This document shows positions 2,949-21,195 of a stretch of DNA of 25,993 nucleotides, piece by piece. A program made the translations under genes and the position numbers. Source of the DNA: a virus. The stretch's first letter is position 1. Every line of letters begins with the position of its first letter. The DNA lies in UHGV virus genome UHGV-0145247; one strand, 5' to 3'. The notes beneath the pieces were generated by a model. It was not told the origin of the DNA, made no database searches, and saw only the letters and a program-made list of their open reading frames with translations.

Positions 2949-3677
2949 TTAACGGGAAAGGTGCTGCTGTCTCAGCCAGGACACGATGATGCATGCGGGT
3001 ATCGTGACCCGATAAGCCGGACCGGTGATGTCGGAAATCATCCACGCTGAACTCAGGGCGATGGCAAGAGGACCAGCCAGAACGGAAAGAGCACGTGAAG
3101 CGACCACAACAGTTCCCCAAGTGGCAATGCCGCCCAGGGAGGTGATGACACTAGCAGACAACATCGTTGCCAGCTCGAGCGCAGCCAGCGAGGAAGTCCG
3201 GATGGCGGCCTGAACGGCGATAAGAATGAGTTGTGGCGTGGGGTTTGTCAGATCCAGATGCATATTGTGGGAGAAAGCAGCCAGCTCTTCTGGTGACATC
3301 TGATCCAAGCTTTTTTCCAGAACCTTCATCAACAGAGCAAGCTCAATGGTTTCGGTAGTACTTTTCTGGTTGTAATTCACATCAAGCTTGTCACAGACAT
3401 CAACGAGAATTTCCCGATAGGTCACGCCTTGCCCCAGCCGGACCAGGCTCGCCAGGGTATTCGCGCCGTAACGCTGAAGCTCAGCGGCTATCAGTTGCCA
3501 GTAGCGGCGATGGTCTGGTGCCAGCAGACGAAACTCCGGGGTTCCGGTAAGACTCTCTGTCCAACGAGTGTCGCCGTCTCGTGGGTCAGTGGTCAGGATG
3601 GAAATCAGCAATTGCAGTTCTTCATTGCTGCATTGGCCCAGCAGATTCAAATCAGGGTCATTACGGTAGACAGCCAT
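2949..3677 (-). CDS. Hypothetical protein (242 aa) with hydrophobic Ala/Ser/Gly-rich C-terminal region
   Basis: ORF with RBS GAGGA 7 nt upstream of ATG 3677; first gene of the WYL-regulator cluster. Confidence 0.55.
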   Translation of the reverse strand: MAVYRNDPDLNLLGQCSNEELQLLISILTTDPRDGDTRWTESLTGTPEFRLLAPDHRRYWQLIAAELQRYGANTLASLVRLGQGVTYREILVDVCDKLDVNYNQKSTTETIELALLMKVLEKSLDQMSPEELAAFSHNMHLDLTNPTPQLILIAVQAAIRTSSLAALELATMLSASVITSLGGIATWGTVVVASRALSVLAGPLAIALSSAWMISDITGPAYRVTIPACIIVSWLRQQHLSR

Positions 3678-3691
3678 TATCTATCCTCAGT

Positions 3692-3714
3692 CAGTGTGAT
3701 GTGAGGTCACACTG
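3692..3714. promoter_or_regulatory. Perfect palindrome CAGTGTGA-N7-TCACACTG, candidate operator or 5'-UTR hairpin
   Basis: 8-bp perfect inverted repeat 15-37 nt upstream of the start codon at 3677. Confidence 0.35.
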
Positions 3715-4282
3715 TAAAAGGGGCTATTGCACGGATGTGTCGTCAGAAATGGTTAATATATGCTCTATGGAAAGATATACGGACAGGGTGTGGCTGGAAA
3801 AATAGGGGAGGAACCAAACAGCTATAACGATTTTTATCGTGCCTGAGTGTTATCAATATAACGATAATGGCTAGTGAGTTTGTTTTTTTTGCTGCTTTAG
3901 GGTGATTATATATTTCCCAAATATTAATGAGCTTACATTTGTTTCTTTTGCTGCGTGTTGTTTCGTAGTATTAGGTAATCGATGCCTTCCACTTTGATGG
4001 CTAACGACAATTTTAATTTTAGTACTATAGTTTATTTATGGAGAAGTGATTGAAGTATAAAAGAGAGGTCTTGCTGAGTAAGGCTTCAGGAAGGTATCCG
4101 TTTGGAACGTAATAGGAAAGGTGGCAAAGTGTATGATGATGCCACCTTTCTAATATGTTAAATCTGACCTCTTTGTGTTAACAATAGGCCGGTTTTGTCC
4201 ATTTTTCAGTTGAAAGAAAGCCGGATTTAGCTGACTTTAGCTGTCCCAGGTAAGGTGCCAGATGCTAGTACGCAACTTACCA

Positions 4283-5497
4283 TTAGAAGTGATGTGGTAT
4301 GATTAAAACCCCATGTTTGTCCAAAGGCGGCACTGTGAAAAATGAATTGTAAAATAAAATACATGACTCCTGATTGTGTAAGTCTATTTGGAAATAACGG
4401 GATACATACCGTTCCAGAATGTTTTGATAATAATCATGGTTTAATTTTTCTTTATTCCTAGCTCGTTCAATTATGTCTTCGTGCAGACTTGAAAATACCT
4501 CAATTAAGTCATCCTTATCCCCATTTAACATGGCATGAAAAGCAGCAGCAGCAAATAACTCATTTGCAGGACCTGCAGACAGCCAGTGACTGCTTTCAAT
4601 AGAATTAATGGACTCCCTCAAACGCCAGAGACCCAAGCGCATTGCCTGATCGTTTAAAAGTTTCAGTAATGGTGGATAAGCATAAATGTCCGTACCAAAC
4701 AGCCTGCGTGGTACACTCAGATCTGCAAAGGTCACATGTTTTACAGAGGCTAGCGCTTCCTGTATTTCATCCTGACCATATTGCATCGTGAGCGCCTTTA
4801 ATAACGTCGATTTTACAGGCAGGGGAGAACCTGCCGCTTTTATGCCGCTGAACGTTCCTCGGGTTTTGCTCACGGGAATAGTGTCCTTCATCATCCTGTT
4901 AATCAACGCAGGGGCAATAATGATGTTATCCGCTGTATTGGCCCCCCCTTTGGAATTCGGATATATGTGACATAACTCCAGCTCCAGCCAGGGTATCAGG
5001 CGTTTAATAACCTGCCCCTGTGAATCAATAACCCTTTGCCCATTTAGAGTATTGTAAGCTTTCTGGTAGTCTGCTTTGCGCTGGTACAACCGGATGAGAT
5101 CAGCAATGTCATCAGGGCTGGTGATACTTCCCAGCCCGAGGGGATTATTCTTTAGCTTGGACTCCACGTTGATCCAGTAAGAATGTTTTACCAGACTGAC
5201 AATGGCATCGTCATCTATGAGCCTTCTATCTTTATTACGATGCCCAATACAACAATACCGTTGATTGCGAGTACCAGACAGGCTAATACCACAGGGCGGG
5301 TACTGACACGTCAGATTCCACCTTTGCGCTCTTTTAGCTGCATTAGAAAGCTTACCCTGATAATGTACAGAACATAAGCGGAATTTACGCTCATCAGGTA
5401 ATTCACCAATTGAGAGCGTACAGTTATTTCTTTTACAAATAGCCATAATAAGACTCTTATCACAGTTAATCATGTTGCATGATAAATAAATAGCCAC
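4283..5497 (-). CDS. HNH nuclease-domain protein with Cys-rich N-terminus (404 aa)
   Basis: Cys pairs in first ~110 aa, then HNH-like motif ELELCHIYPNSKGGANTADNIIIAPALINR; AT-rich gene between AT-rich spacers; GTG start at 5497 without clear SD, alternative ATG at 5473. Confidence 0.6.
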   Translation of the reverse strand: MAIYLSCNMINCDKSLIMAICKRNNCTLSIGELPDERKFRLCSVHYQGKLSNAAKRAQRWNLTCQYPPCGISLSGTRNQRYCCIGHRNKDRRLIDDDAIVSLVKHSYWINVESKLKNNPLGLGSITSPDDIADLIRLYQRKADYQKAYNTLNGQRVIDSQGQVIKRLIPWLELELCHIYPNSKGGANTADNIIIAPALINRMMKDTIPVSKTRGTFSGIKAAGSPLPVKSTLLKALTMQYGQDEIQEALASVKHVTFADLSVPRRLFGTDIYAYPPLLKLLNDQAMRLGLWRLRESINSIESSHWLSAGPANELFAAAAFHAMLNGDKDDLIEVFSSLHEDIIERARNKEKLNHDYYQNILERYVSRYFQIDLHNQESCILFYNSFFTVPPLDKHGVLIIPHHF

Positions 5498-17400: not shown

Positions 17401-18497
17401 GGTTTTACCCTCTCGAAAGGCGGCTGCCACCGCCGGGAATTTCTCCGTACACAACACAGAAGAGCACCTGCGGTTAGGACGCCGCCCGGGTGGATTGGGT
17501 AATGAGCCCGTCGCCCGGTGATGCTCTTTTGTATTGTGTAAAAAGGGCGGTTATCCATCAGAACGTTATCCTCTTCCTCCTTTGGATAGTGGAAAACTGG
17601 ATAACCGCCAAGACTACACACAGCACAGTTAACTAGGTTGTGGCGGTGGTGCCTCCACCTGCCGGGTTAAGCCATTACCGGCGACGTACACTGCCCGGAA
17701 ACGCATTCCATGAACGGGTTGGCTCGCCACGTGCGCATAGCCGCAATTACCACAACGGAAAGAGCACTCCGATCTTCTACCAACGCCCCGTCGTAGCTTT
17801 TCGGCGCATCCACATGGCGCTTGGGTTTCAGCCTCGTGTGGCGGGAATGCTCTTACCTGTTGTGTCCCGGACTCTTCCCGGGCGTCACACCTTTTCGCCG
17901 CGCTGGTGGGGCGCACGTCGTGCCTGAAACACTTGGCTTGCACATTCCAGTTGTCCGGATAGCGCATGGAACTTCAAGGGAACCATCCGGGCTGCTAACG
18001 CTGCATGTGCCATACAACGGTTGTGAATATTGCCGTTCACAACTGGAAGCGCACTCCTTCAGTTACAAACCAGTCCCCACGACGGATGAAGATGGAATGC
18101 GCTTTCATGTTGTGTACGGTTCACCTACCCCGGTCCGGCGGCGCCACATCGCCGGGGCAGATGCAAAGGATCGTTACGCGATCATTCGGCTTGTTGATAT
18201 GGCCGGAAGTATCAAGTCCCGACATCGCGGATTCTGCTTCTCCGCCCCGATTTCACCCCCGCTATTGTTTAGCGCGCAAACCGAGAAAATCGCCTTCAAC
18301 GCTGTCGGCTTTCGCCATGTTCGATCAGGTATCTTCGGGCGGGGAGCCGGCGACCAACCGGCACAACCCCTACAGTATTAATCCAGGTCTACTGGACCCT
18401 CGACGCCGTGGGTTAAACGGCTGCTGTATGTCGGGTGAGTTTCTGTTGCTGGTGGTCAATCCAGCTCCGCAACCCCTCCCGAAGACACCTGAGGTAA

Positions 18498-18731
18498 TTA
18501 AATTGCCTTAGCCGGCAGGCCGAGGACGCTACGCATTTCTTTTTGAGTGCGAATGGCTATGGCGATCGTTAGGTCAATATCTCCGCGGTAAGCTGTGCCA
18601 TCTTCACAAATAATAAGAGTGATTGATTTTTTGCCTTTCTTGCTTACCTCGAAGCGATGCGCTTTACGGACTACATGACAGCCGTTTGCTAATGCGTCCT
18701 TGATAAGGTTTTCAATGCCTTTGCTCGCCAT
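18498..18731 (-). CDS. Hypothetical protein (77 aa), first leftward gene beyond cI
   Basis: RBS AGGAA 7 nt upstream of ATG 18731. Confidence 0.5.
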   Translation of the reverse strand: MASKGIENLIKDALANGCHVVRKAHRFEVSKKGKKSITLIICEDGTAYRGDIDLTIAIAIRTQKEMRSVLGLPAKAI

Positions 18732-18916: not shown

Positions 18917-19543
18917 TCAGAGCTCGTATTGAACGCCTTTAACCACACCAATAATGACGCAGTTACCATTGATGGCGATGTTAGGATAACGGGGATTTAG
19001 CGGGACAAGAAATTTTTGCGGACCGTCTACAACCAGTTTTTTGACCGTGGCCTCGTTGGTCCCATCTATTCGTGCAACTACAATCTTTCCATGAATGGGC
19101 TCAATGTCTGGATCAACGATGACCGTTGCGCCTTCAGGAATCGTGGGCAGTCCATTAGGATTTGTCATTGAGTCTCCCTTTACTTCAAGGGCAAACGAGT
19201 TATCGCTGATGCGGAGAGACGTTTCCACCCATTTTTCGGCATCATGCAAGACATCTTCAGGCTTTGATTCAGTGAATAATCCTGCTTGCACCCACGATAT
19301 CACGGGAACTTTTCGCATCTTAGTTATTAAGTTTCCCTCAAACTCAGTGCCAAAAAGTATGTAATCAATTGATGTATTGAAGAATTTTGCTAGTTTGGAA
19401 AGAGATTCCCCTCCTGGGACGTTTACATCCTTTTCCCAATACCCAACTGCGACATCACTGACCCCACAAAACTTCCCAAGCTCTTTTTGTGAGGTTCTGG
19501 TGATTCGCCTAAGCGATTTTATTCGTTGTCCGACAGTTTCCAT
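18917..19543 (-). CDS. cI: CI-like repressor (HTH + LexA-like S24 peptidase domain), 208 aa
   Basis: N-terminal HTH (TSQKELGKFCGVSDVAVGYWE), C-terminal S24-like region (EVKGDSMTNP...GKIVVARIDG); no SD before ATG, consistent with leaderless cI. Confidence 0.85.
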   Translation of the reverse strand: METVGQRIKSLRRITRTSQKELGKFCGVSDVAVGYWEKDVNVPGGESLSKLAKFFNTSIDYILFGTEFEGNLITKMRKVPVISWVQAGLFTESKPEDVLHDAEKWVETSLRISDNSFALEVKGDSMTNPNGLPTIPEGATVIVDPDIEPIHGKIVVARIDGTNEATVKKLVVDGPQKFLVPLNPRYPNIAINGNCVIIGVVKGVQYEL

Positions 19544-19643
19544 TTACACACCAGTAGTCAATCAAGCTAAGCAATCTTAGTTTTTATTGACCAAAGATAG
19601 ATTGGTAATTATTATCTAATCAAACTTAGTTAAAGGAGCCATT
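19544..19643. promoter_or_regulatory. Divergent cI/cro promoter-operator region
   Basis: 100-bp AT-rich interval between divergent cI and cro; palindrome CTAAGCAATCTTAG and related ACTTAG half-sites. Confidence 0.55.
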
Positions 19644-19853
19644 ATGACCACCGATGATGTTGAAAAGTACTTTGGAAACGCTGAGAAGGTAGCCGAGTTC
19701 TTTGGCATATCCAGCGAAGCTGTTTATCAGTGGCGGAACAGACCCGGTCGCTTGATCCCAAAAGGGAGGGCTGCTGAAGCCGCGTACCGCACCGATGGGA
19801 AACTTGTTTTCCAACCGGAGCTGTATAGCAAGCTTAAAGAACAAAAAGTTTGA
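19644..19853 (+). CDS. cro: Cro-like HTH regulator (69 aa)
   Basis: Strong RBS AAGGAG; small HTH protein divergent from cI. Confidence 0.7.
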   Translation: MTTDDVEKYFGNAEKVAEFFGISSEAVYQWRNRPGRLIPKGRAAEAAYRTDGKLVFQPELYSKLKEQKV

Positions 19854-19881
19854 TAGGAACCACAGAGATAAGGGGTAAGCC

Positions 19882-20364
19882 GTGGGTAATTCAACAGACA
19901 AAAATAATAGCAATAACGAAGTAACTCTGAAGGTGTTTAAAGACAGCCCGCACGTCTGGGCCGGCGGGCTGGATGGGCGTGACTTGGCATGCTGGTTAAT
20001 GGCAAGAGCGAACGCCATTTTGTTTATGGTTGAAAACCAAGAAAAACGAGACGCTATGTGTGCCGAATTGGTAAGGCTAAATGCACACTCTCTTCTTATT
20101 CAGGCTTACGCAGACCTTGGGCTTTCTCGGCTTGAGTGTAATCCCATTCGCTCTCCAAGCAAGGTGGCAATTCAATTCGATATTCAGTCTGGCCATAGAG
20201 TTCGTACTCATCACTCCAACGAACTGAATCAGGTAGCTCCAATACCTTTTCCGGAATTTTCACATTTGCCAGATCTTTCTGAAGCACAAGGAGAATATCA
20301 GCGAATGAAAGTTGCTGCACTCGGTCAGGGCTCCATCCAGTACGAGAAAAAACAAGATGATTAA
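19882..20364 (+). CDS. Hypothetical protein (160 aa, GTG start); conflicts with antiparallel ORF 20096-20566
   Basis: RBS AAGGGG before GTG; N-terminal 70 aa protein-like; 3' part overlaps minus-strand ORF. Confidence 0.3.
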   Translation: MGNSTDKNNSNNEVTLKVFKDSPHVWAGGLDGRDLACWLMARANAILFMVENQEKRDAMCAELVRLNAHSLLIQAYADLGLSRLECNPIRSPSKVAIQFDIQSGHRVRTHHSNELNQVAPIPFPEFSHLPDLSEAQGEYQRMKVAALGQGSIQYEKKQDD

Positions 20365-20566
20365 GCCCTGTTCTTCCGAAAAGAGGCTCCCACTTTGTTC
20401 CGAAGGCCTCTCTGTGTTCAGCAAGCAAAATATCAAGCCTCAGAAGATGCTCGGCCCGCAACCAGGCTCTGTAAAAAGGCAAGGAATCACCTTCGTTAAA
20501 CCATTGATGGATTTTTGCCATGTTCCAGACATGGAATCGGTAAACGCGAGACAAATCCAACGTCAT
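20096..20566 (-). CDS. Hypothetical protein (156 aa), reverse-oriented within early-right region
   Basis: Strong RBS GAAGGAGG 6 nt upstream of ATG 20566; protein-like composition. Confidence 0.45.
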   Translation of the reverse strand: MTLDLSRVYRFHVWNMAKIHQWFNEGDSLPFYRAWLRAEHLLRLDILLAEHREAFGTKWEPLFGRTGLNHLVFSRTGWSPDRVQQLSFADILLVLQKDLANVKIPEKVLELPDSVRWSDEYELYGQTEYRIELPPCLESEWDYTQAEKAQGLRKPE

Positions 20567-20643
20567 GTCGAACCTCCTTCGGTTCTTACTTGTGGAAAAG
20601 AAAGAATATCCGAAGGAAGGTTCGGCACCAATAGAGGTGTTGA

Positions 20644-21195
20644 ATGATGAATGAACCTGAATGGAAAGTTGATAAGCAGCCGGCATGGCTGGTGGCTGCG
20701 ATCAAAAAAACGATCACTGATTTGGACGGGGGATATGCAGAAGCAGCTGAATGGCTGGGCGTGACTGAAAACGCATTGTTTAACCGCTTACGTGCCGATG
20801 GTGATCAAATTTTCCCTCTCGGCTGGGCAATGGTCCTGCAGCGGGCTGGTGGGTCAAATCATATCGCCAATGCGATAGCGCGCCACTCGAATGGGGTCTT
20901 TCTACCGCTGGCAGATATTGAGGACGTGGACAATGCCGATATTAACCAGCGCCTGATGGAGTCCATTGAATGGATCGGCAGACATTCACAGTATCTGCGC
21001 AAAGCTACAGCTGACGGTGTTATTGACCAGGCCGAACGAGAGCAGATAGAGGAGAACAGTTATCAGGTAATGGCGAAATGGCAGGAGCATTTGACATTGC
21101 TTTTCCGTGTCTTTTGCCAGCCAGAAAAGAGTGACGCCCGCGAGTGTGCAGCTCCGGGCGTCGTGGCGAATAAATCTTTGTGTATGGAGAAATAA
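20644..21195 (+). CDS. CII-like phage regulatory protein with HTH (183 aa)
   Basis: HTH-like AEWLGVTENALFNRL; position after cro; RBS GAGGT. Confidence 0.45.
   Translation: MMNEPEWKVDKQPAWLVAAIKKTITDLDGGYAEAAEWLGVTENALFNRLRADGDQIFPLGWAMVLQRAGGSNHIANAIARHSNGVFLPLADIEDVDNADINQRLMESIEWIGRHSQYLRKATADGVIDQAEREQIEENSYQVMAKWQEHLTLLFRVFCQPEKSDARECAAPGVVANKSLCMEK

Follow-up and report, generated by a model that had tools for sequence, protein, structure and literature searches.

Can two open reading frames (ORFs) that face each other on opposite strands, with a long stretch of sequence in common, both be genes? The question is raised by the virus genome UHGV-0145247, whose 25,993 nucleotides (nt) we analyzed as a single window. 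In the interval between its Cro-type repressor gene and its YmfL/CII-like regulator gene, a first-pass annotation had placed a minus-strand ORF of 156 amino acids (aa; 20096–20566) with an excellent ribosome-binding site (RBS) and a 6-nt spacer, starting 77 bp (20567–20643) from the divergent YmfL/CII-like gene, and a plus-strand ORF with a GTG start (19882–20364) that shares 269 nt (20096–20364) with it. The sequence bears out each of these features. The same annotation held that both ORFs could not easily be real, and that a reverse gene at this place would be a moron-type insertion, possibly with a role in exclusion or defense. On the comparative evidence presented below, neither ORF is a chance ORF. 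Our overall reading, to which we assign a probability of roughly 0.65, is that both are genes of a mobile cassette, convergent and sharing 269 bases, together with an inferred regulatory switch. The comparison covers 115 loci, taken from collections of viral sequences, genomes and metagenomes, with 58 distinct cassette sequences in 12 lineages.

The minus-strand protein matched the NCBIfam entry NF033230, "ECs1072 family phage-associated protein", over residues 5–150 of 156 with 133.8 bits (E = 4.4e-39), the curated cutoff being 70 bits, and also matched phrog_5286. Homologs with 45–97% identity were found in Klebsiella, Enterobacter, Salmonella, Serratia, Raoultella and Yokenella, located in prophages and phage contigs. 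AlphaFold2 (AF2), supplied with 13 sequences, returned a confident all-alpha model (predicted local distance difference test score, pLDDT, 89; predicted template modeling score, pTM, 0.85), and the protein is soluble and mildly acidic (grand average of hydropathy, GRAVY, −0.46; isoelectric point 5.6). Differences at codon positions 1, 2 and 3 in the 5′ half of the gene follow a coding pattern (~0.35–0.5, 0.14–0.43 and 0.61–0.67, respectively), and the RBS is nearly invariant across lineages. Together, sequence comparison and structure prediction indicate that the minus gene is real and encodes a folded, soluble, all-alpha protein; the reverse-oriented 156-aa gene proposed in the first-pass annotation is thus upheld by its NF033230 match and its full-length homologs. 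Taken on its own, it is a new member of an already catalogued hypothetical family. The AF2 model found no match among solved or viral structures, and all matches to a profile built from the ECs1072 alignment were named "ECs1072 family" or hypothetical. Pfam, PADLOC and PDB sequence searches with both proteins gave no usable match and no homology link to defense or another activity, and no HEPN or other domain was found in either protein by Pfam, PADLOC or structure comparison of the minus protein.

One could still suppose that only the plus ORF is real, the minus ORF being an opposite-strand annotation artifact; after all, the minus ORF is antiparallel to its neighbors in every context seen, and some pipelines call the plus ORF alone (locus L111). 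This view is barely credible given an NCBIfam match well above the curated cutoff, the confident AF2 model of the minus protein and the classic codon-position pattern of the 5′ half, and given solo homologs at 27% identity that keep the family motifs without any open antisense frame.

Such distant solo homologs (~27–32% identity) retain the motifs LD.L..EHRK, LSF and EWDP. In Shigella phage SfIV the solo gene lies between the left operon and cI, antiparallel to its neighbors, and in three Klebsiella phages solo genes lie between the Q antiterminator gene and the holin gene, antiparallel to both (L002, 3381–3854; L114, 2345–2854; L115, 1224–1670). The Q–holin interval is a classic site of Stx-type lysogenic-conversion cargo; a tRNA-Thr gene stands beside Q in L002 and L115. 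The window member shares with these solo genes the family motifs, the prophage association and the antiparallel orientation. It differs from the named E. coli and Shigella members of NF033230, which are of ~144 aa and stand alone without a partner, in that it is paired: it belongs to a subfamily of 151–159 aa that is always accompanied by the overlapping partner gene. In the literature, we found one paper that names ECs1072, where the solo gene appears in a microarray table of growth-phase-regulated genes in Sakai, the single hint at expression from a repressed prophage.

The partner protein encoded by the plus ORF matched phrog_8304, a family annotated as of unknown function, over residues 11–147 (profile positions 4–137 of 169; E = 2.6e-19), and it has full-length homologs of 160 aa at 52–56% identity; with tblastn, the plus ORF had no match in phage genomes. 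The homology search of both translations that had been suggested earlier therefore delivers family-level matches and full-length homologs (45–56% identity) for each. Codons 1–71 of the partner lie outside the ECs1072 gene, and codons 72–160 run antisense through its 3′ half. An exhaustive HMMER search with the N-terminal 71 residues retrieved ~20 clusters at 50% identity, mostly of 146–169 aa. In every partner-bearing lineage examined, an RBS and a start codon precede by 3–15 codons the conserved motif (K/E)VTLxV(F/Y)xxSPH(I/V)WxGGLEGxxLAxWLxGxANAI. Of the 14 sequences in which this motif is in frame, 12 have it 151 nt away from the ECs1072 stop and two have it 154 nt away, so that the observed indels are in-frame. 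Between diverged pairs, the N-domain showed a proportion of synonymous differences (pS) of 0.5–0.9 against a proportion of nonsynonymous differences (pN) of 0.15–0.25, which indicates purifying selection. With a GRAVY of about −0.4, the partner falls into the same ~155-aa soluble class as ECs1072.

The N-domain also contains a structural signal of the opposite strand. Beyond the ECs1072 stop, at a distance of ~125 nt, the ECs1072 strand can form a hairpin (free energy, ΔG, −19.4 kcal/mol; z-score, z, −2.4; 10-bp stem) with a U-rich run behind it, and the partner codons VFKDSPHVWAGGL encode this hairpin. Hairpin and U-tract are the same in most lineages and degraded in L009, L011 and L053. At the hairpin codons, position-3 differences amount to 0.31, compared with 0.64 in neighboring codons, a reduction in synonymous variation from which it seems that the 5′ coding region of the partner also serves as the terminator of ECs1072. 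The 19 partner codons that follow the hairpin differ at positions 1, 2 and 3 by 0.29, 0.29 and 0.64, a third-position excess that constitutes a coding signature in the plus frame. Judged by its homologs and its pattern of substitution, the plus ORF appears to be a conserved, real gene, with ordinary coding sequence in its first ~70 codons.

We then consider the overlap itself, where ECs1072 codons 68–156 plus stop are read against partner codons 72–160 plus stop. For each ECs1072 gene of 12 lineages (pairwise ECs1072 identity 29–64%), synonymous codons were resampled in 1000 simulations and partner-frame stops counted over the last 85 codons. A single stop, at the boundary, was observed, compared with 38.1 expected (standard deviation 4.5, simulation minimum 23). 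The remaining two antisense frames over the overlap carried 43 stops versus 32 expected and 56 versus 48 expected, and the partner frame in the 5′ part of ECs1072 carried 33 versus 44 expected, a far weaker deficit (P ~0.013). The depletion yielded P values of 0.001–0.07 per lineage and a Fisher combined value of 1e-11. In two independent solo types, the equivalent region has 4–5 antisense stops, where ~5 are expected.

These counts bear directly on the possibility that only the minus gene is functional, the plus ORF being a by-product of a conserved 3′ untranslated region (UTR) and terminator together with the amino-acid and codon composition of ECs1072. It has in its favor that the most conserved motif of the partner falls on the terminator hairpin and its U-tract, and that several gene callers call ECs1072 alone. 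We nevertheless regard it as distinctly unlikely, as the stop depletion is confined to one of three antisense frames and is far stronger in the overlap than in the 5′ half, and as solo homologs have as many stops as expected. Moreover, the 19 post-hairpin codons vary mostly at the third position of the plus frame, an RBS and start codon recur where the upstream sequence is otherwise unrelated, and the open antisense frame always continues the frame of the N-domain.

The synonymous sites of ECs1072 provide a second line of evidence. Synonymous divergence (dS) is about halved in the overlap, from 0.84 to 0.40 between the window and L012 and from 0.90 to 0.34 between L012 and L015, and in diverged pairs the ECs1072 pS is ~0.8 outside and ~0.55 inside it. 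A sliding-window analysis located the constraint in two blocks, ECs1072 codons ~84–114 and ~124–156, in which 0.6–0.78 of the codons for identical amino acids are themselves identical, versus 0.35–0.48 in the 5′ half. The two blocks match the partner motifs PVGYSxLPDL and AYAxLGLS...DPIxPLSxEAIQFD and, since each third position of ECs1072 is a second position in the partner frame, such a constraint is expected from purifying selection on the partner tail. Recombination mosaicism was considered as the sole cause of the low overlap dS and rejected, because it cannot explain a frame-specific stop depletion at 30–50% identity.

The comparison of synonymous substitutions across homologous loci, which the first-pass annotation had recommended, thus reveals a coding signal in both frames, with ECs1072 synonymous sites constrained in the overlap. 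Its contention that both ORFs cannot easily be real finds no support, given that the plus ORF is conserved coding sequence as well and that its frame is open through the overlap in every lineage. From these sequence comparisons we conclude with good, if not full, confidence that both genes are real and that the overlap has been selected.

A further alternative grants that the plus ORF is translated and restricts function to its N-terminal ~50–70 residues. The tail would then be open so that ribosomes follow RNA polymerase, sparing transcription of the cII-like and replication genes from the early promoter PR from Rho-dependent polarity. This would suit a cassette that lies inside an essential early operon in most lineages, and a tail that is predicted to be disordered. 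We rate it as unlikely, because openness alone would not need two blocks of synonymous constraint that match conserved partner motifs, and because ~280 nt between the partner stop and the cII-like gene would be untranslated in any case.

Several observations weigh against two genes with a selected overlap, and part of them favor one or the other of these alternatives. The AF2 model of the partner is poor (6 sequences, pLDDT 43; tail aa 79–136 below 50), a point in favor of ECs1072 alone being functional. In favor of the same alternative also count L003 and L006 and L007, which are without the partner N-domain and yet have a stop-free antisense frame: L006 (4014–4472, minus strand) and L007 carry a cassette variant, located after a lambda-type cII, with neither N-domain nor embedded terminator, and in L006 the antisense frame is open for 148 codons from an ATG start 13 nt beyond the ECs1072 stop. 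Where it overlies the hairpin (VFKDSPHVWAGGL), the conservation of the N-domain may be due to the RNA rather than to the protein. For close pairs, the partner frame in the overlap has pN at or above pS, meaning that the tail sequence is largely dictated by ECs1072, and this evolution mainly under ECs1072 constraints speaks for a tail that merely has to be open. In the closest pairs, nonsynonymous divergence also falls in the overlap, and mosaicism may have acted there. Shared ancestry among the lineages makes the combined P-values optimistic; the L081 partner is frameshifted, an exception to the constant spacing; and the ECs1072 promoter-like element described below is weak by consensus, lying below the threshold of a consensus scan. 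As a separate observation, the L003 cassette adjoins an insertion sequence (IS) element.

Returning to the reading of both ORFs as genes of one cassette, 107 of the 115 loci scored for both profiles, every one containing ECs1072, a count with some circularity in it, since the tail antisense to ECs1072 is part of the partner profile. Independent evidence comes from the partner N-domain, which adjoins an ECs1072 gene wherever the contig is long enough and occurs alone only on the cut-off contigs L096 and L110; all 11 lineages with an in-frame N-domain (11/11) hold both genes. Occasional pseudogenes are seen on either side, with ECs1072 truncated in L074 and L080 and the partner frameshifted in L081. 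In mEp460, LLS and Kp4866-6, the cro and ymfL-like matches are ~370 bp apart with no insert, cro abutting the ymfL-like gene, a spacing which implies that the ~760 bp between them here are an insertion. Being extra DNA relative to these three phages, with promoter-like and terminator-like signals of its own that serve ECs1072 only, the insertion fits the moron-type origin proposed earlier and may be called moron-like. It stands directly after a Cro-type gene in at least 7 of 12 lineages and is found at several genome positions in different phages, away from cro/cII in L009 and L011; wherever the context is readable, the partner is co-oriented with the surrounding genes and ECs1072 is antiparallel. 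The compared loci indicate that what has been inserted between cro and the cII-like gene is a mobile cassette of ~760 bp with two genes.

In locus L008, a Lar-type restriction-alleviation homolog (Lar_restr_allev, E = 2e-9) lies directly upstream of the partner gene in partner sense (3353–3760; 4694–5101 minus in locus coordinates), preceded by an antirepressor-like gene and cro, so that the cassette there sits among other early counter-defense or accessory genes.

Next, we examined the region upstream of ECs1072. Its ~75 nt are conserved in all contexts, more strongly than the coding sequence, and a promoter-like TTGGTG-17-TATTCT is kept throughout, with a −10 element of TATAAT in L053 and L072 and of GATAAT in L046. 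An inverted repeat pairs the promoter spacer with the Shine–Dalgarno (SD) region and folds as a long hairpin on either strand (plus strand, ΔG −33 kcal/mol, z −7.0; minus strand, ΔG −29.3 kcal/mol, z −6.3), with 83.5% of cells paired. Covariation in the repeat was not significant and not above controls. We considered an RNA element at this SD/anti-SD repeat (20570–20625) and do not claim one, as the structure is very stable but its covariation is no better than in controls. Possible roles of the repeat (window 20562–20632) are those of an operator pair, of an RNase III site or stabilizer on the PR transcript, or of a translational control element. Rfam searches of the region (at a relaxed threshold) and of the whole window gave no match, and ARAGORN detected no tRNA.

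The arrangement of these signals suggests a switch with a built-in antidote, which we put forward tentatively and at somewhat less than even odds. In the lysogen, PR would be repressed and ECs1072 would be expressed from its own promoter, with the partner silent. Upon infection or induction, transcription from PR, which presumably generates the partner transcript, would run head-on into ECs1072, and the resulting mRNA would be complementary to ~450 nt of the ECs1072 mRNA, comprising the whole 3′ UTR and the 3′ half of the coding sequence. ECs1072 would be silenced by polymerase collision and RNA duplex formation while the partner protein is produced, and the latter would perhaps also neutralize ECs1072 protein already present. 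The outcome would be a lysogeny-ON/lysis-OFF accessory function, plausibly in exclusion or defense, that is equipped with its own off switch.

Table 1. Features of the cassette and of its immediate surroundings in the window.
Feature	Position	Strand	Basis
S24/HTH repressor gene	18917–19543	minus	domain match
PR-like sigma-70 promoter, TTGACC-17-TATTAT, upstream of cro	19587–19615	plus	promoter scan
Cro-type repressor gene, left boundary of the insertion	19644–19853	plus	Pfam P22_Cro, E 2.2e-12
Partner RBS AAGGGG (19870–19875) and 6-nt spacer before GTG	19870–19881	plus	sequence
Partner gene, phrog_8304 family, 160 aa, GTG start	19882–20364	plus	profile match, homologs
Conserved N-terminal domain of the partner, VTLKVFKDSPHVWAGGLDGRDLACWLMARANAIL	19921–20022	plus	pS/pN, codon-position differences
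Terminator-like hairpin (stem 19944–19971), then UCUUUAAA	19936–19971	minus	fold, conservation
Antiparallel dual-coding overlap, 269 nt	20096–20364	both	stop depletion, synonymous constraint
ECs1072-family gene, 156 aa, ATG start	20096–20566	minus	NF033230
ECs1072 RBS GAAGGAGG (plus-strand 20573–20580) and 6-nt spacer TTCGAC	20567–20580	minus	sequence, conservation
Inverted repeat, arms 20570–20585 (including the ECs1072 SD) and 20610–20625 (promoter spacer)	20570–20625	both	fold
ECs1072 promoter-like element: −35 TTGGTG (20626–20631), 17-nt spacer, −10 TATTCT (20603–20608)	20603–20631	minus	conservation
YmfL/CII-like regulator gene, right boundary of the insertion	20644–21195	plus	NF041471, 185 bits; Pfam Phage_CP76

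Beyond the cassette, Pfam and NCBIfam scans identified replication genes in the window in addition to cI, cro and the cII-like gene. Directly downstream of cI, on the same strand, a 77-aa ORF (18498–18731, minus) matches phrog_12911, a family of unknown function (E 2e-37), and has no Pfam, PADLOC or NCBIfam match; in lambda, the equivalent position is occupied by rexAB. To the left of cI, ~1 kb (17450–18520) holds no convincing ORF, only overlapping ones of low quality. Parts of it recur at 70–91% identity in 131 phage records (Klebsiella, Escherichia, Salmonella and Stx phages), mostly unannotated, and a 280-nt core (~17846–18123) without Rfam or tRNA match is 88% identical in many Klebsiella phages. 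This region may be an uncharacterized non-coding element.

Long antisense overlaps between protein genes of bacteria and phages are rare and often disputed. The present case is unusually testable because its comparative evidence comes with internal controls, namely 12 diverged lineages, a frame-specific depletion, synonymous constraint and a solo negative control. For the widespread ECs1072 family it provides a first clue to function; annotations of the solo form exist in 1103 of the 5426 complete E. coli genomes, approximately one in five. The layout also points to how prophages might couple an accessory gene to lysogeny and shut it down at induction, possibly a general design. Finally, it exposes an annotation problem, in that public gene calls give one gene, the other, or occasionally both: ECs1072 only in some assemblies (L012–L015), the partner only in L111, and both with the 269-nt overlap in one Klebsiella variicola assembly (L112, 3001–3685; GCA_021727475.1).

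In databases and a limited literature search, we found no description of the obligate partner, of the 89-codon antiparallel dual-coding overlap, of a terminator within the partner coding sequence, or of the cro-proximal cassette. Four known systems invite comparison. In lambda, the PRE transcript is antisense to cro and OOP RNA is antisense to cII; OOP is non-coding, and PRE codes for cI only past cro. The cassette lies in the same neighborhood and likewise opposes the PR transcript by leftward transcription. It differs in that lambda has no coding sequence antisense to cro or cII at this place, and in that the cassette is mobile and also occurs away from these genes. We considered the ECs1072 transcript as an analogue of PRE, running antisense through cro into cI, and rejected this for the latter reason and because the terminator-like hairpin would stop the leftward transcript before cro.

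Lambdoid morons, such as lambda bor, are accessory genes with their own promoter and terminator, and the classical moron is a single self-contained transcription unit. The cassette resembles them as extra DNA that is absent from close relatives at the same site, has promoter-like and terminator-like signals of its own, runs against the flanking operon and occupies several positions. Unlike a classical moron, it has a second gene that relies on the host operon for transcription and that overlaps the terminator, the 3′ UTR and the 3′ coding half of the moron.

The prophage type I toxin–antitoxin pairs txpA/RatA and bsrG/SR4 of B. subtilis have convergent 3′ overlaps and combine a non-coding antisense RNA with a small hydrophobic toxin. 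They share with the cassette the convergent prophage units with overlapping 3′ ends, and an antisense transcript able to pair with the other mRNA and promote its decay. Here, however, both transcripts encode soluble proteins of ~155 aa, instead of a small hydrophobic toxin and a non-coding antitoxin.

Among described architectures, the antisense "noncontiguous operon" of Tha and Ith in S. aureus prophages comes closest to the cassette; there, an overlapping antisense gene encodes an inhibitor of a lysogen-expressed defense protein, the two genes are expressed mutually exclusively, and immunity was shown experimentally to be coupled to the life cycle (Rostol et al. 2024, PMC11087260). In gene layout, the cassette fits this scheme: both systems are prophage-borne, pair protein genes from opposite strands whose transcription units overlap (here as predicted), and place an antisense gene with its own promoter (here promoter-like) inside an operon under life-cycle control (here presumed). 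The proteins are unrelated, Tha having a HEPN RNase domain of which none was found here, and the coding overlap of the cassette is long (89 codons) and convergent. The logic of orientation is inverted as well: in the cassette, the lysogeny function would fall to the antisense gene that has a promoter of its own, and the off switch to the gene in the operon. That the parallel extends to function is less likely than not; if it did, the long antiparallel pair, with 89 codons read on both strands, would be a self-contained lysogeny/lysis toggle of enterobacterial lambdoid phages, ECs1072 a lysogen exclusion or defense effector with a previously unseen fold, and the PR-driven partner its off switch, acting through convergent and antisense transcription and as a protein antidote. 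Such a toggle would be a Gram-negative counterpart of Tha/Ith in which the terminator and the 3′ coding half of the effector are written inside the gene for its antidote.

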